A stretch of DNA of 22,140 nucleotides from a virus (Duplodnaviria > Heunggongvirae > Uroviricota > Caudoviricetes): IMG/VR virus record IMGVR_UViG_2579779149_000003; one strand, 5' to 3'. The first letter of the stretch is position 1, and each line of letters opens with the position of its first letter. A model generated the notes under the pieces. The model was given only the letters and a program-made list of their open reading frames with translations, was not told where the DNA came from and did not search any database. Of this stretch, positions 7,483 through 19,329 are shown piece by piece. Made by a program: the position numbers and the translations under genes.

Positions 7483-8385
7483 TTACGATTGCATATTCCA
7501 AATCATAGCATTCCCATTATGGTTTTCTATGATCTTTGCGATCGGGGCTCCACCAAACGAGTGCATGTAACTGTGATGTATGGTCAAAACCAAATCCTGG
7601 AGGACTTGATCACTTTCCAGTTCTGTAACATTCAATCCAATTTTCTGAGCTTTATCGAAATGGATATGTCTCGAATGAGTGTAAGTTGTATGATGATTGT
7701 TCAGCTCTGAGCATACATGAGTTGCTTTTGTTTCTGACTCCGGATCATTTGCAAACATACCCGTCATAAGCCAGTGCTTGACAATCTCATTCGCCCATTG
7801 GATAGCTTTTTCACACTCTCCGATAATAGTGGGGTTGAGTTTCTGAAGTATAAACTGCCACATTTGCACAGCTGCTGGATTGTTAAAAATTTCCGCCTGA
7901 GCTCTATTCCATTCCTCAATAATAGCATGTGTAGAAAATCCATTAAACTGAGGGTCAATCGGGCCAATATTGGACTGTTTACCCATTATGATTTCATTAG
8001 CACAGCACGCAAGCATGGTACCACATGACATTGAAATCATAGGAACGATAGCTCTGATATCAGTCCCAAACTTAGAACGCAGATAATGACCAATAGACTC
8101 TAAGGCAGCGATATCACCTCCAGGGGTATGTAATATTAAATCCACCCCCTTTGTAACATCTAAACCATTAATAACAGTCATTAATCCATTTTTATCATCA
8201 TCTGTCATCAGGGTGAGATGTCGGACTTCTGCACCACCATGTTGCAACCATCCGGAATAATATGTAATTACATTTCTTCCAGTGTGATTAGACAGTTGTA
8301 ATAAATATTTACGGCGAACCTCATCCATCGGACTCTTCTGGGCGAGAGCCGTCATCTCGCCCAGTACGTCACTCCAATTAGGCAT
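7483..8385 (-). CDS. ClpP-fold serine peptidase (S49/SppA-like or SDH-type), 300 aa, AT-rich accessory gene
   Basis: 300-aa ORF with LILHTPGGDIAALESIGHYL and MISMSCGTMLACCAN motifs, resembling the TPGG and active-site serine regions of S49/ClpP-fold peptidases (compare LLDMDTPGG in gpC in this window). No SD; the ATG lies 5 nt after the upstream stop, implying translational coupling. Family assignment is from motif recognition only. Confidence 0.7.
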   Translation of the reverse strand: MPNWSDVLGEMTALAQKSPMDEVRRKYLLQLSNHTGRNVITYYSGWLQHGGAEVRHLTLMTDDDKNGLMTVINGLDVTKGVDLILHTPGGDIAALESIGHYLRSKFGTDIRAIVPMISMSCGTMLACCANEIIMGKQSNIGPIDPQFNGFSTHAIIEEWNRAQAEIFNNPAAVQMWQFILQKLNPTIIGECEKAIQWANEIVKHWLMTGMFANDPESETKATHVCSELNNHHTTYTHSRHIHFDKAQKIGLNVTELESDQVLQDLVLTIHHSYMHSFGGAPIAKIIENHNGNAMIWNMQS

Positions 8386-8390
8386 GGTGT

Positions 8391-8591
8391 TTAGTAGGTG
8401 TAAAGTTGATGATGTGTACTTTGATTTTGCTTAGCCTGCGCTGCAGTACCTTGAGAGTACCAAACGCCGGTACTACCACTCGTACTCGTTTGTTGAGCAA
8501 GTACCCTGGAAGCAAAGTTGTTAACAGTTTCTCCAGTCATCATCTCTGCAGGTTTAATGCCATAGAAATCGTAGAACTCAGCCGGGCTCAT
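8391..8591 (-). CDS. Hypothetical 66-aa protein, first gene of the peptidase operon
   Basis: ORF MSPAEFYDFYGIKPAEMMTGETVNNFASRVLAQQTSTSGSTGVWYSQGTAAQAKQNQSTHHQLYTY with a good SD (AGGAG about 8 nt upstream of the ATG at 8591); its stop is 5 nt before the peptidase ATG. No family recognised. Confidence 0.55.
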   Translation of the reverse strand: MSPAEFYDFYGIKPAEMMTGETVNNFASRVLAQQTSTSGSTGVWYSQGTAAQAKQNQSTHHQLYTY

Positions 8592-8615
8592 AGTGGAATC
8601 TCCTATTGTAGTGCT

Positions 8616-8653
8616 ACATATAGTGTTTTTTTAACACTGAAAACACTATATGT
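8616..8653. promoter_or_regulatory. Nested palindromic operator-like element in the promoter region of the small-ORF/peptidase operon
   Basis: ACATATAGTGTT (8616..8627) and its exact reverse complement AACACTATATGT (8642..8653), with an internal palindrome AGTGTT-TTTTT-AACACT (8622..8638), 25-60 bp upstream of the ATG at 8591. Confidence 0.4.
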
Positions 8654-8676
8654 GCCATTTACTCAATTTCTAAATG

Positions 8677-8700
8677 TGCAAAAAGCCTCAAATGAGGCTT
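8677..8700 (-). terminator. Terminator-like hairpin upstream of the small-ORF/peptidase operon
   Basis: Perfect inverted repeat AGCCTC-AAAT-GAGGCT (8684..8699); on the minus-strand RNA it is followed by UUUUU. Separates the operon from upstream minus-strand transcription. Confidence 0.4.
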
Positions 8701-8853
8701 AAAAAAAATGAAAAGCTGCTTTCTATGGCTGAACTATAGCGAGTTCCCCACATTTTTTACAACCACAAAATGCTCTTTTACGGCAAAACAATTCTTAGAT
8801 AAAACACACAACCATGTCGCACTTACACACATTCGCTTACAAAAGTATTAGTT

Positions 8854-9069
8854 TCAATACATTCTACAGTTAGCCTGCACTGATTTGTTATGCGCCAATA
8901 TGTCCCGCTTCGTCTGCTTATCCTGCACGGTAATATCGTGCTCAGTGAGGTAGATGATGTTCACCCAGTCACAAGCCGTGTCTGTTACTGCAGTTTTTTC
9001 GGGTAAATCTTTCGCGCAACTCACGGTCAACATCGCCATCAGGAAGATGATTAACAATCTGCTGTACAT
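8854..9069 (-). CDS. Putative o-spanin-like secreted or lipoprotein (71 aa), overlapping the 3' end of the preceding gene in another frame
   Basis: MYSRLLIIFLMAMLTVSCAKDLPEKTAV... has a signal-peptide-like N-terminus with Cys18 (non-canonical lipobox TVSC). It starts inside and extends beyond the 8969..9247 ORF, the overlapped Rz/Rz1-type architecture. Confidence 0.35.
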   Translation of the reverse strand: MYSRLLIIFLMAMLTVSCAKDLPEKTAVTDTACDWVNIIYLTEHDITVQDKQTKRDILAHNKSVQANCRMY

Positions 9070-9247
9070 CCCAGGCTCCTTTTGTTGTTTCTACCCGGCG
9101 TATTGCAACGACTTCAGTAGCAGTTGCACGTTCTTTAGTGCGTTGCTGGTTCGCTTTTGTCTCAGCGATACTTGCACCGCGAGATTTACCCAGACCAAAA
9201 GCACCGGCTATTACTGCCAGCAAGGCAGCAATCAGGCCGACAATCAT
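8969..9247 (-). CDS. Putative i-spanin-like membrane protein (92 aa from the internal ATG at 9247)
   Basis: From ATG 9247: MIVGLIAALLAVIAGAFGLGKSRGASIAETKANQQRTKERATATEVV..., an N-terminal TM helix followed by a charged domain. Starts 20 nt after the stop of the endolysin remnant. The longer 166-aa version of this ORF was rejected. Confidence 0.35.
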   Translation of the reverse strand: MIVGLIAALLAVIAGAFGLGKSRGASIAETKANQQRTKERATATEVVAIRRVETTKGAWDVQQIVNHLPDGDVDRELRERFTRKNCSNRHGL

Positions 9248-9269
9248 TTCAATTCCCACATAGACCTCA

Positions 9270-9440
9270 CACCAATGCGGCTTTAGCTTTGACGTAACGT
9301 TCACGGCGGTCTTTAATGCCGTTTTTCCCACCATTAATAATCTGCGTGACGCGCTCCAGATCTTCCGGGTAAAGGAGACAACCACGTAACGTGAAGAACC
9401 AAGCAGCAGAACGGGGAGCATGAGAGACAAACCCGCGAAC
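9270..9440 (-). pseudogene. 3' remnant of a GH19 (chitinase-like) endolysin gene
   Basis: The minus-strand frame ending at stop 9267..9269 translates ...SAAWFFTLRGCLLYPEDLERVTQIINGGKNGIKDRRERYVKAKAALV, matching the conserved C-terminal IINGG-NG-DR-RY motif of GH19 endolysins. The frame upstream has no credible N-terminal catalytic domain and is closed by a stop near 9500. Confidence 0.5.
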
Positions 9441-9677
9441 CATAAACGCGGTAAAAACCCTGTGTGCATCGTTTTTAATTATTCCCGGACACTCCCGCAG
9501 AGAAGTTCCCCGTCAGGGCTGTGGACATAGTTAATCCGGGAATACAATGACGATTCATCGCACCTGACATACATTAATAAATATTAACAATATGAAATTT
9601 CAACTCATTGTTTAGGGTTTGTTTAATTTTCTACACATACGATTCTGCGAACTTCAAAAAGCATCGGGAATAACACC

Positions 9678-9971
9678 ATGAAAAAAATGCTACTCGCTAC
9701 TGCGCTGGCCCTGCTTATTACAGGATGTGCTCAACAGACGTTTACTGTTCAAAACAAACCGGCAGCAGTAGCACCAAAGGAAACCATCACCCATCATTTC
9801 TTCGTTTCGGGAATTGGACAGGAGAAAACTGTTGATGCAGCCAAAATTTGTGGCGGCGCAGAAAATGTTGTTAAAACAGAAACCCAGCAAACATTCGTAA
9901 ATGGATTTCTCGGTTTTATTACTTTAGGCATTTATACTCCACTGGAAGCGCGTGTGTATTGCTCACAATAA
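9678..9971 (+). CDS. bor: Bor lipoprotein (serum-resistance lysogenic-conversion protein, 97 aa)
   Basis: MKKMLLATALALLITGCAQQTFTVQNKPAAVAPKETITHHFFVSGIGQ... matches lambda Bor; opposite strand to the lysis genes as in lambda. Confidence 0.95.
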   Translation: MKKMLLATALALLITGCAQQTFTVQNKPAAVAPKETITHHFFVSGIGQEKTVDAAKICGGAENVVKTETQQTFVNGFLGFITLGIYTPLEARVYCSQ

Positions 9972-10002
9972 TTGCATGAGTTGCCCATCGATATGGGCAG
10001 CT

Positions 10003-10479
10003 CTATCTGCACTGCTCATTAATATACTTCTGGGTTCCTTCCAGTTGTTTTTGCATAGTGATCAGCCTCTCTCTGAGGGTGAAATAATCCCGTTCAGCGG
10101 TGTCTGCCAGTCGGGGGCTGGTTGCATTATCCACGCCGGAGGCGGTGGTGGCTTCACGCACTGACTGACAGACTGCTTTGATGTGCAACCGACGACGACC
10201 AGCGGCAACATCAGCGCGCAGAGTTTCATTTTCAGCTTTCGCATTGGCTAATTCTCTCGAGTACTTTGCATCGAGTGCAGCAACATCACGCTGACGCTGC
10301 TGCATGTCAGCGATGGTGGCGATCGACTGCTTCAGCTCACTGACTTTTTTATCACGCTGTTCTTTGTAGGCGATGGCGTTATCACGGTAATGATTGACCG
10401 CCCACGACAGGCAGACGATGATGCAGATAACCAAAGCATAAATAATCGCGGCGACTCTGCTCACTGCTCTATCCCCCAA
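10003..10479 (-). CDS. Rz: i-spanin Rz (lambda-like)
   Basis: 158-aa ORF with N-terminal TM segment [25 protein letters not shown] and C-terminus ...[23 protein letters not shown], as in lambda Rz. Confidence 0.9.
10062..10244 (-). CDS. Rz1: o-spanin Rz1 lipoprotein, embedded in Rz in the +1 frame
   Basis: [60 protein letters not shown]: lipobox VVGC and proline-rich tail, lambda Rz1-like. Confidence 0.9.
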
Positions 10480-10994
10480 CAGGCTAATGCGCTTTCCTGG
10501 TCACGACGAATAACCTGTCCATAGCAGTTATTTGAACGTATGCGGCAATCGCGCCCACCATCTTTTATCCACCAGCGAATCGCCTCGCATGCGCCCTTAC
10601 GATCACCGGCATTCAGCCGCTTATAAAACGTCGACGGGAAACACTTACCGGGGCCAATGTTATAGGGACAGAATGACGCTATACCCGCTTTTTGTGGTTC
10701 GGTCAGTGGTACTTTAATATTGCGCTCCACCCATGCCAGCGCCTTATCACGCTCAATGGCGTTGACCTGGTCGCATTTTTCCTTCGACAGTTTCATACCG
10801 GGAAAAACGGGTTTTCCATCCACCATCGTGGCACCCCGACAGATGGTCCAGATGCCGGACCCATCGCGGTATGCCGTTGTGTGGTTACCTTCTTTTTCAT
10901 CCAGAAACTGGTCGAGAATATCAGGCGCGGGCGCACCGACGGCAATCAGTGCCAGAACGGCAGCCGACAGGCCGTATCTGATTTTTGCGTTCAT
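10461..10994 (-). CDS. R: SAR endolysin (T4-lysozyme-type muramidase, RrrQ/R21-like, 177 aa)
   Basis: N-terminal signal-anchor-release-like segment [17 protein letters not shown] followed by the catalytic region [20 protein letters not shown]; resembles the E. coli Qin-prophage lysozyme RrrQ as I recall it. Confidence 0.88.
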
Positions 10995-11057
10995 GGATAT
11001 TTATCAGGATTTATCGGTTTCTGCCCACGGACAGGTTTATCTGTTCCGGTCAGTGAC

Positions 11058-11408
11058 TTAAGGTTGTGATTCCGGAGGAGTCTTCAGAGAACCAGTAATT
11101 CTTCCCGGTAGCTTTCCTTTGTAGGTTATCCATACATTCTGCGCCTCTAAAATTACGGGGCGCTTTTCCGGCGACTGCTCATCCCCTTCACATAACCCGG
11201 CAGCAACATCCAGGAAGACCTGTCTGATGCTCATTCTGGCTGCTGCCTCATAAAACTCCAGCGCGGCACCTTCAACACGGTCCAGCGAGATGTCCAGGTC
11301 AAAAATTTCACCGTCAAAGCGTTTTTTGTCCCGTAACGCTAAAGTTACCGTAACTTTATTCTCAAAATTGCGGATCCCTTTCACAATCAGTTCATAGTTT
11401 TGAGTCAT
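11058..11408 (-). CDS. Hypothetical protein between holin and endolysin (YdfR-like, possibly DUF1327), 116 aa
   Basis: Soluble 116-aa ORF in the position occupied by ydfR in Qin-type lysis cassettes; family assignment from gene position and vague recollection only. Confidence 0.5.
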   Translation of the reverse strand: MTQNYELIVKGIRNFENKVTVTLALRDKKRFDGEIFDLDISLDRVEGAALEFYEAAARMSIRQVFLDVAAGLCEGDEQSPEKRPVILEAQNVWITYKGKLPGRITGSLKTPPESQP

Positions 11409-11412
11409 TGAA

Positions 11413-11628
11413 TTACTCTCCCCGTGCAGCCTTACGCTTGTCTTCTCTGATTTTGAAGTACAGATTTGTCAGATAAGTCAGGAAGCCCAGAACCAGACTC
11501 CCAAGTACACCAATCGCAGCCCACTGTGACGGACTGACCTGATCAAGCCACTGTAAAAACCAGTAGCCAGCACTGCCTGCGGAGGTGCCGTAGGCAATGC
11601 CCGTTGAAATTTTGTCCATGGATTTCAT
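11413..11628 (-). CDS. S: Class II pinholin (phage 21 S21 / EssQ-like, 71 aa, dual-start motif MKSM)
   Basis: [71 protein letters not shown] matches the S21 pinholin: two TM segments and a Met-Lys-Ser-Met dual start. Confidence 0.9.
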
Positions 11629-11920: not shown

Positions 11921-11995
<75 letters not shown>

Positions 11996-11998
11996 ATA

Positions 11999-12074
<76 letters not shown>

Positions 12075-12076
12075 AC

Positions 12077-12153
12077 TGGACCGCCACCGGGGACTCGAAC
12101 CTCGCACACTCAACTTAAAGGGTTGACGCTCTTTCCTGATGAGCTAGTGGCGG
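12077..12153 (-). tRNA. tRNA-like gene with atypical anticodon loop CCUUUAA (anticodon UUU by position, C at position 33); identity uncertain
   Basis: Acceptor CCGCCAC/GUGGCGG, D-arm GCUC...GAGC, anticodon stem UCAAC/GUUGA, T-arm CGAGG-UUCGAGU-CCCCG (one mismatch), encoded CCA. Packed 2 nt and 1 nt from neighbouring tRNAs. Confidence 0.45.
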
Positions 12154-12154
12154 T

Positions 12155-12230
12155 TGGTGGCCCTTGCTGGATTTGAACCAGCGACCTGGCGATTATGAGT
12201 CGCTCGCTCTCACCACTGAGCTAAAGGGCC
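12155..12230 (-). tRNA. ileZ: tRNA with anticodon CAU (IleX/IleZ-like tRNA-Ile2, or Met)
   Basis: Reverse complement GGCCCUUUAGCUCAGUGGUGAGAGCGAGCGACUCAUAAUCGCCAGGUCGCUGGUUCAAAUCCAGCAAGGGCCACCA closely resembles E. coli tRNA-Ile2 (ileX) and the ileZ gene of lambdoid prophages; T-arm GCUGG/CCAGC is perfect. Confidence 0.8.
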
Positions 12231-12449: not shown

Positions 12450-12494
12450 TATCTGTATCCTGTGGCTATTTCTCTTGCGCAAAGGATGCTTTTG

Positions 12495-13373
12495 ATGACG
12501 CAGCAACTCGAAAACATGCCAATAACAGAAATCGAAATTGCCTACGGTGGAGAGGCATACGCAGATAATCAGATCGACGCGAAAACATTAGGCGAAGCCT
12601 TAACCTCTCTTAGTGCCCTGATTGAACACGCCGAAAAAATAATTAATGGCGAAACAGCAGAGCCGAAAGTCAACATCAAGGCAACAAAAGAAGGTTCATT
12701 TACTTTGCTTGTTGCTGTGATGGGGAGCATAAAAACTATTAACGCCCTTGGCCTCGTTGCAGGTGGTGGAGTTGCCGCAGGTGGCGTACTCGGGATAATC
12801 GAATGGCTCAAAGGGCGTAAAATCAGCTCCATTGTCGTCGATGAACAAAAAGATACAGCAGAAATCGAAGTGGATGGTGAGAAGGTTAAATGCAGTAACG
12901 ACATTCAAAAATTAATAACCAGTCCAATCATCCGAAAAGAACTGGATAAATTAATCTATAAACCCCTGCAGACTGAAAAACCATCCACGTTCTCAGTTTC
13001 ACAGCAGAAGCATAAGGTAGTCAGGGTGACGCAAGCTGAAGCAGTAAGTTTTAAAACTGCAAAATCCACCTTTGTCGAGAAAACGCACGTAACGACACGC
13101 CAAGCTAATGTACATTTTGCTAATGTTCGATTCAAGCAAGGCAAAAGCTGGGATATCATCCTGCCAAATGGCGAAGAAGTTAGCGCATCTATGAAAGATG
13201 AGGCTTTTCTTGAACGGGTTGAACACAACCAAGCAGCATTCTGTAAGGGTGATCTTTTTGTTGTAGAACTGACAGAAACAACAAAAGAAACAAATGGCGC
13301 GCTGTCTAAACCACGCTATAGTATTACTAAGGTTATACGCCACAGAGCGGCGGCAGATAGGAAACTACTTTAA
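12495..13373 (+). CDS. Hypothetical membrane-associated protein (about 292 aa), first gene of an AT-rich three-gene cassette
   Basis: ORF open from 12462 (GTG); the preferred start ATG 12495 (MTQQLENMPITEIEIAYGGE...) has AAGGA 9 nt upstream. Central glycine-rich hydrophobic segment SFTLLVAVMGSIKTINALGLVAGGGVAAGGVLGIIEWL flanked by soluble N- and C-terminal regions. No family recognised. Confidence 0.65.
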   Translation: MTQQLENMPITEIEIAYGGEAYADNQIDAKTLGEALTSLSALIEHAEKIINGETAEPKVNIKATKEGSFTLLVAVMGSIKTINALGLVAGGGVAAGGVLGIIEWLKGRKISSIVVDEQKDTAEIEVDGEKVKCSNDIQKLITSPIIRKELDKLIYKPLQTEKPSTFSVSQQKHKVVRVTQAEAVSFKTAKSTFVEKTHVTTRQANVHFANVRFKQGKSWDIILPNGEEVSASMKDEAFLERVEHNQAAFCKGDLFVVELTETTKETNGALSKPRYSITKVIRHRAAADRKLL

Positions 13374-13622: not shown

Positions 13623-14009
13623 ATGGCGAACACTAAATCCTACCTGGCAATGCAGGCATGGTTTACCACCCTTATCACTGCGGGATTGAATTTCCTTTTT
13701 GACTGGCTTCCTCAATTAGCCTTCTTCAAATCATTGGCGCCTGGAGCTGCTGTCGGCTTATCTCATGTGGTAATTCTTCTTATCGCTTACATAGGTTTGC
13801 CTACGCTTAATGATGTAAGAATGAAAAGGGAAATAAAAACGGCCAGAAAATTCATCACGAACTGCCTGGCCAACCCTAACCTAACACCAGACCAAATTGC
13901 GCACTACAACCAATGTCTTATCGATCTAGACAATAAGCTATTAAAAAACATAAATATTCGTATTGATGCTTTATCTGACGCCGAATCGAAAGCTCAAGCA
14001 AACGAGTAG
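13623..14009 (+). CDS. Hypothetical membrane protein (128 aa, two predicted TM helices)
   Basis: MANTKSYLAMQAWFTTLITAGLNFLFDWLPQLAFFKSLAPGAAVGLSHVVILLIAYIGL... then a soluble tail; the ATG directly abuts the upstream stop (tgaATG). Confidence 0.6.
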   Translation: MANTKSYLAMQAWFTTLITAGLNFLFDWLPQLAFFKSLAPGAAVGLSHVVILLIAYIGLPTLNDVRMKREIKTARKFITNCLANPNLTPDQIAHYNQCLIDLDNKLLKNINIRIDALSDAESKAQANE

Positions 14010-16372: not shown

Positions 16373-16765
16373 CTACTGCCCTGTTTTAACGAAGTTTTTA
16401 AAGGAAACAACTGCCTGATAGGGGTTTGGTTGACAGCCAAACATATTATCGCAAAAAGGCTTGATGAAAATTCTTGAGGATCCATCTTCATTTGGCATTT
16501 TACTCACTTGATAAGCGAGGAATGGACTATTTGGAGAGGGATTATAAGTGGAAATTAGCGTGTCTGTCGCCGTTTGAATTTTCCATGAGGAATTATTAGC
16601 CAACCAGAATTGCGCTCGTTTCCAATAAAAGTCACATTGCTTTTCATCATTACATGTTAGTGGCTTCATTGCTTCTGCTTTCAACGCTGGATCGACCTTT
16701 GCTGCACACCCTCCCAACATTACTGTTGCAATCATTACACCTGCGACTAAAACAAGTTTCTTCAT
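16373..16765 (-). CDS. Putative lipoprotein (130 aa), AT-rich moron
   Basis: MKKLVLVAGVMIATVMLGGCAAK... has a signal peptide with canonical lipobox LGGC; flanked by terminator-like hairpins sharing the 13-mer CGCCGAAGCGGGT. No family recognised. Confidence 0.7.
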   Translation of the reverse strand: MKKLVLVAGVMIATVMLGGCAAKVDPALKAEAMKPLTCNDEKQCDFYWKRAQFWLANNSSWKIQTATDTLISTYNPSPNSPFLAYQVSKMPNEDGSSRIFIKPFCDNMFGCQPNPYQAVVSFKNFVKTGQ

Positions 16766-16908: not shown

Positions 16909-17064
16909 TTACTCCTCAGGTTCGTAAGCTGTGAAGACAGCGACCTCCGTCTGGCCGGTTCGGATTCGTACCTCGCAGAGGTCTTTCCTCGTTACCAGTG
17001 CCGTCACAATGACGGTTAAACAGATGACGATCAGGGCGATTAACATCGCCTTTTGCTGCTTCAT
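16909..17064 (-). CDS. hokD: Hok-family type I toxin (HokD/RelF-like, 51 aa)
   Basis: From the internal ATG at 17064: MKQQKAMLIALIVICLTVIVTALVTRKDLCEVRIRTGQTEVAVFTAYEPEE, recognised as HokD/RelF. The in-frame upstream extension (ORF from 17121) is probably leader sequence. Confidence 0.85.
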   Translation of the reverse strand: MKQQKAMLIALIVICLTVIVTALVTRKDLCEVRIRTGQTEVAVFTAYEPEE

Positions 17065-17275
17065 AGCCTGCTTCTCCTTGCCTTTCGGCACGTAAGAGGC
17101 TAACCTAGATTTGCCGTTCATAGATTGAGCCTCAGATTAATGTTAAGCGTCTTGCAGGACGCGTAATGTTAACTGGGGCTTTTCTCTATCTGCCTTTGGT
17201 GTTCATGCCTGAGACAGATAGCCTCAAGCACCCGCAGCCATTCTACTTAACTCCCGTTACCTCGCCAATATAAAA

Positions 17276-17365: not shown

Positions 17366-17650
17366 GACAACCTCCTGTATTGGACGTACACCAGTCCTGA
17401 TAAATATGAGGCTGTCTCATCATTGATTCAATATAACTATTGGGTATAGTTTCTGTGATTTTGTTCTGTAGAAATGGAACACAACAACCAGTCACCACCA
17501 GCACTTCTTTAAATACGCCAAGTCCGACGCAAGCTAACCTTCTAGTCCGCTTTGGGCGAAGACCGGACGTTCGATAGGTGTGAACTAGTAACTTTAAAAA
17601 CATTTAATTACCAGTAAAAAAACAAGAATATACTATCACTTTTCCAATTT

Positions 17651-18688
17651 TTAATTACCCTTATCAATTTTAAGAAATACATTTCCAATCTCATCAGAAT
17701 AATCCTGTATTATTTTTGAAATGACGGCATGATCAATGGTTGGTTTTAAAAATAAAAGTGTCACAGTAATCTGCATCAAACTAATAGCAGTAGCATGGGC
17801 TGGATCAGCCATTCCTGAATCACTTTGCCCGACCAATAATATATCATCACCAGTTTCACAGAGACCAAGCCTATTTCTCATTGCCTTGGAACCGGTGTGT
17901 ACATTCTGACTCGCCCACTTATAATAAGGGCGCATGTGTTCTAACTGAACATCTTTCTCAATAGCTCCAAACCCCACTTTATTATGGTTAGGGAAAATAT
18001 AAGATGCCCAGCCATAATTATCTGCATATTTTTTGCCATATTTTTTTATTAATATATCAAATTGAACTTTACACTCAGCTATTTCTTCAATAGTTGGACC
18101 TTTTGCTTCTAACCGGTGCTCGTACTTTTTGTGTTCCAACATTCCAGTATATGAATCAACCACTTCATGGTAGTAAAAGCGCTCAGCACACTCTTTTCCA
18201 TGCTTTGCTATAAACATAGCTGTGGCCGCTACCTCATGAAGTGCTCGCCATCTCGCTTGGGCAGCATCTGCAAATCCATTCTTTAAGAGACACAAAATTT
18301 CGTTGGCGATGTGGCAAGCTCTTGCGTGATGCCGAACGACTAAATCAAAAACCACATCCTCTTCAGAGGCAGCTTGTGGTCTATAAGAACGATTGAACTC
18401 TTCACCGGACTCCGTGCATATCACTATAAGTGTTTCGAGCAAATCAAAAGCCTCTGCCCATCTTGAAATATTTCTCTCAACAAATTCATCACAAAGAGAA
18501 CGATGTTCTCTAAGCATTGCATTGGCCGAGCCAATAAGAGATTTTTTAACGACAATGGCTATTTTGGGAATTAGGTTATTAATTTCTTTTTCGATATCAG
18601 CGTCACCAGATAAATCAAGTCTCTCTTTTAAAAGGCTGTCTATGTGCTCAAGCAAAATATTATGAAAAGTATCCATGTCATATCTCAA
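17651..18688 (-). CDS. Hypothetical 345-aa protein, AT-rich orphan gene (candidate defence or abortive-infection gene)
   Basis: Long ORF MRYDMDTFHNILLEHIDSLLKERLDLSGDADIEKEINNLIPK... with K/I/N/E-rich composition, flanked by AT-rich intergenic regions. No family recognised. Confidence 0.7.
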   Translation of the reverse strand: MRYDMDTFHNILLEHIDSLLKERLDLSGDADIEKEINNLIPKIAIVVKKSLIGSANAMLREHRSLCDEFVERNISRWAEAFDLLETLIVICTESGEEFNRSYRPQAASEEDVVFDLVVRHHARACHIANEILCLLKNGFADAAQARWRALHEVAATAMFIAKHGKECAERFYYHEVVDSYTGMLEHKKYEHRLEAKGPTIEEIAECKVQFDILIKKYGKKYADNYGWASYIFPNHNKVGFGAIEKDVQLEHMRPYYKWASQNVHTGSKAMRNRLGLCETGDDILLVGQSDSGMADPAHATAISLMQITVTLLFLKPTIDHAVISKIIQDYSDEIGNVFLKIDKGN

Positions 18689-18903
18689 TAAGTTTTAAAT
18701 CCATGTGGCACACCCATAATATAAAAATAAACAGCATGCCAGTCTAAGTCTGGCTATTTGTATATCATATCACCTGAAACATTGACAGATGTAACCCACC
18801 AAAATATTATCAATGACCACTCTTGGCACAAAGCGAACAACCACGCTAGCTCTACCTTGTGCCATGAAAATGTCAATGCATATCTGAACTAATGCCCTTT
18901 AAT

Positions 18904-19329
18904 CTAGTAACGTCTAAAATACCTAACATTTCCCTGATAAAATGCCAGAATGCGCTGCATAACTTCGCTCTTCCGGCACTCGCGACAGATTATGTTTAGA
19001 CAACTATCGTAGCGACGTATTTCTCCGTCAGGTAATGACCAGATAAGGTCCGGATCAACCGCAGATGGTTTCTTCAGCTTTGCCCTTGAGAGCTTTTTAC
19101 GGGCATTTTGCCAGTCCTTACGCGCCTGTTCAGACGGGAATAACCCGTAACCAGAGTTGTATACATCGCCACTGGCAACCAGCTCTCTGGCCAGAACGTT
19201 CATCAGATATCTTGTTGCCCCAGTTTTAGTTTCCAGTTGTCTTAACGTCTCGCGCCCACTCTGGCGTACGAGTTCAACAACCTGCCCTTTAATTTTTTCC
19301 CGCTCTTCTTGTGTAAAAACTTTTGCCAC
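18904..19329 (-). CDS. Hypothetical 141-aa protein downstream of the replication initiator gene
   Basis: MAKVFTQEEREKIKGQVVELVRQSGRETLRQLETKTGATRYLMNVLARELVASGD... contains a Cys cluster CLNIICRECRK. It lies where a helicase loader (P/DnaC-like) would be expected but is too small and unlike either. Confidence 0.5.
   Translation of the reverse strand: MAKVFTQEEREKIKGQVVELVRQSGRETLRQLETKTGATRYLMNVLARELVASGDVYNSGYGLFPSEQARKDWQNARKKLSRAKLKKPSAVDPDLIWSLPDGEIRRYDSCLNIICRECRKSEVMQRILAFYQGNVRYFRRY

Follow-up and report, generated by a model that had tools for sequence, protein, structure and literature searches.

The IMG/VR virus record IMGVR_UViG_2579779149_000003 (Duplodnaviria; Heunggongvirae; Uroviricota; Caudoviricetes) is a stretch of DNA of 22,140 nucleotides (nt), hereafter the window, which carries on its minus strand a gene for a protein that its sequence identifies as a full-length member of the DUF5677 family. 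The gene is a self-contained mobile cassette of ~1.24 kb in a variable slot of lambdoid prophages, and we regard it as a reasonable candidate, though an unproven one, for a gene that defends against phages through a single protein. An earlier note on this DNA, made from the sequence alone, had described an AT-rich orphan gene of unrecognized family and had suggested that it was acquired horizontally and served in defence or abortive infection. The evidence set out below assigns the gene to a known family, supports its horizontal acquisition and upholds the suggestion of a defence role in part.

Family membership rests on several searches. The Pfam model of DUF5677 (PF18928) matches the protein with 117.4 bits against a gathering cut-off of 27.1 (E = 9e-34; residues 116–278 of the 345-residue version of the reading frame), PHROG 27456 matches it end to end (1e-209; residues 5–345 of the same version) and RefSeq already names it “DUF5677 domain-containing protein”. 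A word-indexed search returns 552 relatives, with full-length relatives at 60–89% identity in Salmonella, Pectobacterium, Providencia, Serratia, Klebsiella, Vibrio, Colwellia, Sulfurovum and Nitrospiraceae, and an exhaustive search of 50%-identity representatives returns 3,115 clusters at E ≤ 0.001, of which 1,156 reach E ≤ 1e-30. All family-invariant residues are present in the window protein, which aligns end to end with relatives of 341–343 residues. These results rule out orphan status, and they place the protein in DUF5677 rather than among the phage replication or recombination proteins, homology to which the earlier note had named as evidence that would speak against its reading.

Members of the family are found in bacteria and archaea as well as in prophages and in islands that resemble satellites. 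When one genome of each species is scanned with one strict peptide pattern, 197 loci are recovered, covering Proteobacteria, Chloroflexota, Planctomycetota, Bacteroidota, Thermotogota, bacteria of the candidate phyla radiation and archaea, and relatives occur in 34 IMG/VR viral contigs. In the literature that mentions DUF5677 the family is assigned no function, and neither a solved structure nor a positive experiment is on record for it. Architectural variants are of little help as functional hints: one fusion joins NTPase_1 (PF03266) to DUF5677, the N-terminal halves of two long members (671 and 840 residues) match no Pfam family, a large subgroup of 410–430 residues carries an N-terminal extension of ~75 residues, and the longer members have no recognizable extra domain. 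Some Chloroflexota genomes carry two paralogs: one Caldilineaceae contig holds a pair of loci, and so does one Dehalococcoidia metagenome-assembled genome (the pairs L092/L105 and L123/L124).

The open reading frame (ORF) runs uninterrupted across 17651–18688 and encodes 345 residues, the length first reported, if counted from the farthest TTG (18688). The ORF is real, but that length is not favoured: the true start is almost certainly the ATG at 18676, because the PHROG 27456 alignment begins at residue 5 of the longer version, because RefSeq WP_000379313.1 (341 residues; Escherichia coli 55989) is annotated from that ATG and because all homologs begin at the equivalent methionine. The ORF list and translation thus place the coding sequence at 17651–18676 (minus strand), with 341 codons plus a stop, and residue numbers below follow this version unless stated otherwise. 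The strong AT bias noticed at the outset is borne out by measurement, the GC content of the gene being 0.383 (0.304 at third codon positions, GC3) as against 0.503 for the rest of the window and 0.40–0.54 (GC3 0.33–0.68) for neighboring genes. Values no different from those of the neighbors were the other outcome that the earlier note had named as speaking against its reading. The lowest-GC segment of 1,026 nt in the whole 22 kb begins at 17571, with 0.5% of such segments equally low. The upstream region is likewise AT-rich, as the earlier note had it (GC 0.37 over the 227-nt spacer), and in 8/8 hosts examined the DUF5677 gene has a lower GC content than its own flanks.

By comparing the window with phages that carry other cargo we can delimit the cassette. 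Homology to phages mEp460_ev081, Tritos and Evi ends at 18803–18817 and resumes at 17559–17575 with sharp breakpoints, which therefore define a swapped module at ~17573–18807 of ~1.24 kb; at homologous locus L025 homology breaks exactly at 17573. The upstream flank of the slot is a conserved DUF977 gene (18904–19329, minus strand; Pfam DUF977, 6e-29), annotated “LygF” in mEp460, Evi and E. coli 55989. The downstream flank is a hok/sok unit (16909–17233, minus strand) composed of a hok/mok toxin ORF (16909–17121; Pfam HOK_GEF, 3e-23; hokD and MokW annotations in sister phages) and a sok RNA region (17059–17233; Rfam RF01794, 110 bits, E = 1.9e-25). Five contents are known between DUF977/LygF and hok: the DUF5677 gene, PD-T7-1, PDC-S15/FRG, a GNAT gene with a helix-turn-helix (HTH) regulator, and DUF551 remnants. 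The slot of mEp460_ev081 encodes a 449-residue PD-T7-1 protein (PADLOC, 4e-157), that of Tritos a 444-residue FRG-domain protein identified as PDC-S15 (PADLOC, 1.2e-98) and that of Evi the GNAT acetyltransferase and HTH regulator, and in the closest complete-genome relative of the window, an E. coli prophage, the slot holds only DUF551 pseudogene fragments. PD-T7-1 and the PDC-S15/FRG candidate are the defence genes among these contents, which makes the DUF977–hok junction a probable defence hotspot of lambdoid prophages.

The distribution of the gene shows the same mobility. Of 5,426 complete E. coli genomes, 73 carry it; all of these copies are chromosomal and share ≥99% identity, and every copy whose context was examined lies in a lambdoid prophage; in E. 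coli 55989 the order DUF977, DUF5677, hokD is identical to that of the window. A Klebsiella lambdoid prophage with different replication genes carries a DUF5677 gene at the same post-replication slot. In Enterobacter the gene lies at the cargo end of an integrase–AlpA–D5 primase island, with PDC-M01A/B in one copy; SPbeta-like Bacillus prophages carry it near the arbitrium genes AimR/AimP; in Photobacterium it stands alone, inserted among core genes; the Kushneria homolog adjoins a PDC-S15/FRG gene and YoeB/YefM; and on a metagenome contig it is flanked by transposases, an Abi_2 gene and an NYN nuclease. The proposed horizontal acquisition is thus well supported by the presence of the gene in only a small share of E. 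coli genomes, by its relatives in distant taxa and by a base composition that consistently falls below that of its surroundings.

Non-coding DNA travels with the gene. The 5′ non-coding part of the cassette (18677–18807, minus strand), bounded by the homology limits and searched for promoters and terminators, contains a weak terminator-like element (a 5-bp hairpin followed by a T-rich run, 18738–18754) and a weak sigma-70-like site (18746–18718, 9/12 matches). Homology upstream of the gene extends to 18795 in Klebsiella, to 18834 in locus L029 and to 18759 in loci L030 and L038, such that ~80–160 nt are co-inherited with the gene between unrelated contexts, which suggests that it carries its own expression signals. 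The 3′ non-coding tail (17573–17650, minus strand) reaches to the point where homology with the other-cargo phages resumes. Folding of the two untranslated parts gives no significant RNA structure (z = -0.4 for the 5′ part and -0.7 for the 3′ part), and an Rfam scan for a regulatory RNA in the cassette finds only the neighboring sok.

The gene is also solitary. We surveyed the nearest ORF on each side at 80 species-level loci (80 of the 197, a large share of them from Dehalococcoidia and Caldilineaceae) and searched the 141 resulting neighbors with Pfam and PADLOC. The gap to the nearest ORF has a median of 215 nt on the upstream side and 118 nt on the downstream side, tight co-directional neighbors occur in 10/73 cases upstream and 10/72 downstream (~14%), and none of the 141 neighbors recurs as an operon partner or antitoxin, so that a conserved partner of this kind is rejected and the description of a single gene holds. 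The commonest neighbor families are DDE transposases (about six), type I restriction-modification S subunits (three), AAA_21 (two), Mrr (two) and NTP_transf_2 (two), with single cases of SMODS, HEPN_LA2681 and PLD/DrmC, and the remainder are ordinary housekeeping genes. Defence and mobile genes look enriched in this set, a suggestive impression only, as they were counted without a matched background.

What the protein might do is approached through its structure and conservation. An AlphaFold2 model built from a 52-sequence alignment is all-helical (pLDDT 91.5, pTM 0.86), and an alignment of 148 divergent members identifies L130, G134, R144, E148, W223 and H260 as invariant. R142 (147/148), W143 and H147 (145/148) are each kept in at least 145 of the 148, and H117, E126 (137/148), D137, E240, H247, R249, Y252, S285 and G288 are strongly conserved as well. 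These residues concentrate in three blocks. Block 1 (18233–18277, minus strand; G134-F-A-D-A-A-Q-A-R142-W-R144-A-L-H147-E148) has R-x4-H spacing and occupies the first turns of modeled helix 136–189, just after the loop 133–135. Block 2 (17894–17938, minus strand; H247-M-R249-P-Y-Y-K253-W-A-S-Q-N-V-H260-T) has [K/R]-x6-H spacing, with position 253 basic in 130/148 members and H260, present in all, just past the end of modeled helix 246–257. Block 3 (17801–17830, minus strand; G283-x-S285-x-x-G288-x-x-D-P292) lies in the loop before helix 290–308.

Two of these blocks, R142-x4-H147(-E148) and [K/R]253-x6-H260, are compatible in spacing, and in spacing only, with the motif of HEPN ribonucleases (RNases), and fold comparison returns an HEPN-like sub-domain match of weak resemblance. 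In the published definition of HEPN domains (PMC3710099) the arginine of the motif is followed by a polar N/D/H; the motif closes helix 3 or opens the loop that leads to helix 4, helix 2 contributes an acidic residue, and an insert separates helix 2 from helix 3. Judged from the secondary structure of the predicted model, the best-fitting correspondence would have helix 1 at 108–132, helix 2 at 136–~165 (carrying E148), a long insert, helix 3 at 236–257 ending at K253...H260, and helix 4 at 290–308; E148 and E126 both lie in helices that precede block 2. An alternative placement of the core on consecutive helices of residues 45–195, with R142-x4-H147 as the canonical motif, is rejected by a model of that fragment alone.

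The following results weigh against the HEPN assignment. The model of residues 45–195 (pLDDT 92.9) finds no HEPN among its top 60 matches, only generic bundles. R142–H147 stands at a helix start and R142 is followed by W, so that neither position nor polar residue fits; K253–H260 ends just past helix 246–257, which suits the expected position, but the residue after the basic one is M, L or W rather than N, D or H. Foldseek against the Protein Data Bank (PDB) gives nothing at E < 0.001, phmmer and profile searches of PDB sequences give nothing relevant, and no solved structure resembles the whole protein. HEPN and Abi Pfam models match 0 of 119 diverse members even at E ≤ 10, and hhalign against an alignment of Abi_2, which shows the canonical invariant R-N-x3-H and is the only HEPN family compared profile against profile, returns a probability of 0.3%. 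The sequence and profile searches do not recover Abi_2 or HEPN, folds that the earlier note had proposed as comparisons; because these sequence-level tests fail, we do not file the protein as an HEPN member and treat the resemblance as a lead.

Taking these lines together, we think it slightly more probable than the opposite that the gene serves in defence or exclusion. The fuller proposal, a stand-alone phage-exclusion or abortive-infection protein of the prophage, is layered; as a whole it is our best explanation, held with a confidence somewhat short of even. It runs as follows. The DUF5677 protein would be made in the lysogen in an inactive resting state and would be activated by a component of an infecting phage that relieves autoinhibition by the flanking helical regions, a trigger-dependent activation suggested by analogy only. 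R142/R144/H147/E148 together with K253/H260 would form a polar catalytic site at one end of the HEPN-like helical bundle, for which the most plausible activity would be metal-independent cleavage of tRNA or mRNA; that the chemistry is of HEPN type is in itself rather doubtful. The protein would thus act as a self-contained sensor-effector that benefits the lysogen. DUF5677 has in addition been reported to be enriched beside serine recombinases that mark defence loci in Bacillota.

Several findings count against a defence role. None of the 5,027 models of PADLOC-DB v2.0.0 matches at E ≤ 1, a negative outcome for one of the checks originally suggested, and NCBIfam holds no matching model either, so that identity with a known defence system is rejected. 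Many homologs lie amid ordinary housekeeping genes. The gene is co-oriented with the early-right operon, which makes expression in the lysogen dependent on a predicted promoter of weak consensus match. The sole published experiment on the family took a DUF5677 ORF of lactic-acid bacterial or enterococcal origin, expressed it constitutively in Enterococcus faecalis and challenged the cells with six phages. The ORF was not among the five reported to protect; this negative is weak because the homolog is distant and because host and phages differ. The original claim of a defence or abortive-infection determinant is accordingly supported by slot context and a weak structural likeness, and goes unsupported by PADLOC, the Pfam HEPN and Abi models and hhalign.

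As a rival reading, the protein could serve defence without being an HEPN RNase, as a distinct all-helical enzyme or ligand-binding fold, which we consider unlikely. Its unusually rich set of conserved His, Asp and Glu residues lends itself to such a reading, in which a metal or nucleotide site would be built from H117, E126, D137, R142, R144, H147, E148, E240, H247, H260 and S285 and the chemistry might be, for example, hydrolysis of a nucleotide or cofactor or the modification of a protein. More specific, and decidedly improbable, is an unrecognized all-helical catalytic fold marked by R-W-R-x-L-H-E and H-x-R-P-Y-Y-K-x-A-S-x-N-V-H that would constitute a new, very widespread class of single-protein anti-phage effector. 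Were it true, this non-HEPN class would extend from prophages of E. coli as far as Chloroflexota and archaea, and its chemistry would be unlike that of known abortive-infection nucleases.

The gene might instead serve lytic growth or induction of the phage itself, expressed along with the replication and nin genes as part of the early-right (PR) transcript and acting, for example, in shut-off of host RNA or in counter-defence. Such a role is possible because the gene shares its orientation with cro, the replication genes, DUF977, hok and Q and because its predicted promoter is a weak match (9/12); PD-T7-1 and PDC-S15 lie on the opposite strand in the slot of sister phages, and in SPbeta-like phages it runs in the same direction as the long series of phage genes around it. 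We nevertheless give this reading little credence, since closely related full-length copies stand outside phages, as in the solitary Photobacterium insertion and at chromosomal loci of Kushneria and Desulfuromonas, since neighbors are non-phage in most of the 80 species, since the Enterobacter integrative island lacks phage structural genes and since the co-moving upstream DNA points to expression signals of the gene's own. The least probable of the readings, if only slightly so, is a selfish or addiction toxin, or neutral accessory cargo, with no role in phage resistance, which would be maintained merely by being carried on mobile elements. A patchy distribution associated with mobile elements, the proximity of hok/sok here and of YoeB/YefM or HipA in other genomes, and the negative outcome of the one published defence test are all compatible with it; an addiction toxin, however, sits poorly with the lack of a conserved antitoxin-like partner, and full-length conservation across phyla (60% identity between the E. 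coli and the Sulfurovum or Vibrio copies) together with invariant, catalytic-looking residues argues for sustained selection on a biochemical activity and therefore against neutrality.

Some further observations concern the cassette and its relatives. The best sigma-70-like site of the region (18782–18810, plus strand; TTGACA-17 nt-TATTAT, 11/12) sits at the cassette's upstream border, from where it reads antisense into the DUF977 gene at its 3′ end; its TATTAT is kept in 3/5 cassette homologs, and it may be a promoter of an antisense RNA or the remnant of a divergent promoter. Opposite codons 5–97 of the DUF5677 gene runs an antisense ORF of 90 codons (18393–18665, plus strand), and the stop-free antisense stretch (sense nt 14–290) recurs in 8/9 homologs examined because residues 1–97 contain no Tyr codons. 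A conserved antisense gene comparable to Ith of the Tha system is rejected on these grounds, the stretch being probably a by-product. In the Enterobacter hormaechei islands (L003–L008, ~9200–11533, plus strand) a protein of 777–779 residues is always encoded ~170 nt downstream of the DUF5677 gene on the same strand; a C-terminal SEC-C motif is its sole recognizable feature and in one strain it is split into two ORFs. The pairing of DUF5677 with this SEC-C protein was not seen outside the E. hormaechei islands.

The wider setting of the gene in the window is that of a mosaic lambdoid prophage, of which no complete E. coli genome matches more than 76%. The minus-strand order is cro-like, YdaT-like, a replication gene, DUF977, the DUF5677 gene, hok/sok, a lipobox ORF, DUF968, RusA and Q, which agrees, along with the Pfam HOK_GEF and Rfam sok matches, with the replication/nin-like series, hok gene and lipoprotein neighbor that the earlier note had recognized. 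The lipobox ORF (16373–16765, minus strand; 130 residues), between hok and the DUF968 gene, has a typical lipoprotein signal (MKKLVLVAGVMIATVMLGGC; lipobox LGGC). With a GC content of 0.40 it is a second low-GC accessory gene; it is “hypothetical” in the RefSeq relative and a Pfam scan assigns it no family.

Other accessory regions lie farther from the slot. An array of four tRNA genes (11921–12230, minus strand) separates the lysis genes from the Q region: Gly-tcc, Thr-tgt, Lys-ttt and a CAT-anticodon tRNA that ARAGORN calls Met and whose RefSeq equivalent in the relative is Ile. In E. coli 55989, a strain that shares the DUF5677 cassette, the tRNAs at this position are Arg and Ile instead. 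Lys-UUU tRNA is the target of anticodon nucleases such as PrrC, hence the interest of phage tRNA sets. The only other 1-kb stretch of the window with GC ≤ 0.40 is 7841–8867, where an ORF of 300 residues (7483–8385, minus strand) is found; the closest relative has a KilA-N protein and a small hypothetical at this position, and these different genes indicate that variable accessory DNA lies here too, with the small terminase subunit on one side and the lysis genes on the other. Two plus-strand ORFs between the tRNA array and Q (12462–13373, 303 residues; 13623–14009, 128 residues) oppose the late and early genes around them, which are on the minus strand. Both are hypothetical in the RefSeq relative and are possible further accessory cargo, and the 128-residue product has a membrane-associated look from its sequence.

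The interest of the gene lies in the size of the family it represents. DUF5677 comprises ~3,100 clusters at 50% identity that are already catalogued, have no assigned function and are missing from current defence-gene catalogues, and the window supplies a well-defined E. coli representative. Since it is a 1.24-kb cassette from a slot with PD-T7-1 and FRG alternatives, it can be cloned directly and tested in a model host. Should a defence role prove true, DUF5677 would be a new solo sensor-effector family of HepS/Tha-type prophage immunity, the DUF977–hok junction would gain standing as a defence hotspot of lambdoid prophages, and the full proposal would add a new family and architecture to the single-protein abortive-infection effectors of prophages. 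Should the gene not be defensive, it would caution that hotspot position and an HEPN-like fold match are insufficient for a defence call.

Among known systems, PD-T7-1 and PDC-S15 share with the DUF5677 cassette the DUF977/LygF–hok slot and the format of a single gene of about 1.3 kb, but they are unrelated proteins encoded on the opposite strand, and PD-T7-1, unlike DUF5677, comes from experimental selection. Selection for function in E. coli yielded 21 defence systems, PD-T7-1 among them, in a study which also stresses the many uncharacterized candidates in prophage hotspots (PMC9519451). Abi_2 proteins (AbiD/AbiD1/AbiF, PF07751) resemble the DUF5677 protein in being ~300–340 residues long, all-helical, stand-alone and associated with mobile elements or prophages, and on the metagenome contig mentioned above an Abi_2 gene lies 2 kb from the DUF5677 gene; they differ in their textbook invariant R-N-x3-H-H, and DUF5677 members do not match the Abi_2 model. 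The HEPN-T/UPF0332 protein of Archaeoglobus (AF0298, PDB 2hsb) shows 8% identity over a match of about one third of the DUF5677 protein, a match that the fragment 45–195 does not reproduce. HEPN-T proteins are small, frequently pair with nucleotidyltransferases and are without the large helical regions that the DUF5677 protein has toward its N and C termini. HepS, which Salmonella prophage Gifsy-1 encodes in the accessory region that follows its replication genes, is a solo HEPN abortive-infection protein. At rest it shows no toxicity; once activated by the tail-tip protein of a siphovirus, it cuts the anticodon loops of tRNAs (PMC13043305). No ORF with R100–H105, which would identify HepS, is present in the LT2 record of Gifsy-1. 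Tha is a comparable tail-activated system of Staphylococcus aureus prophages (PMC11087260). By virtue of position, organization and distribution, HepS and Tha are the closest functional analogues of the DUF5677 gene.

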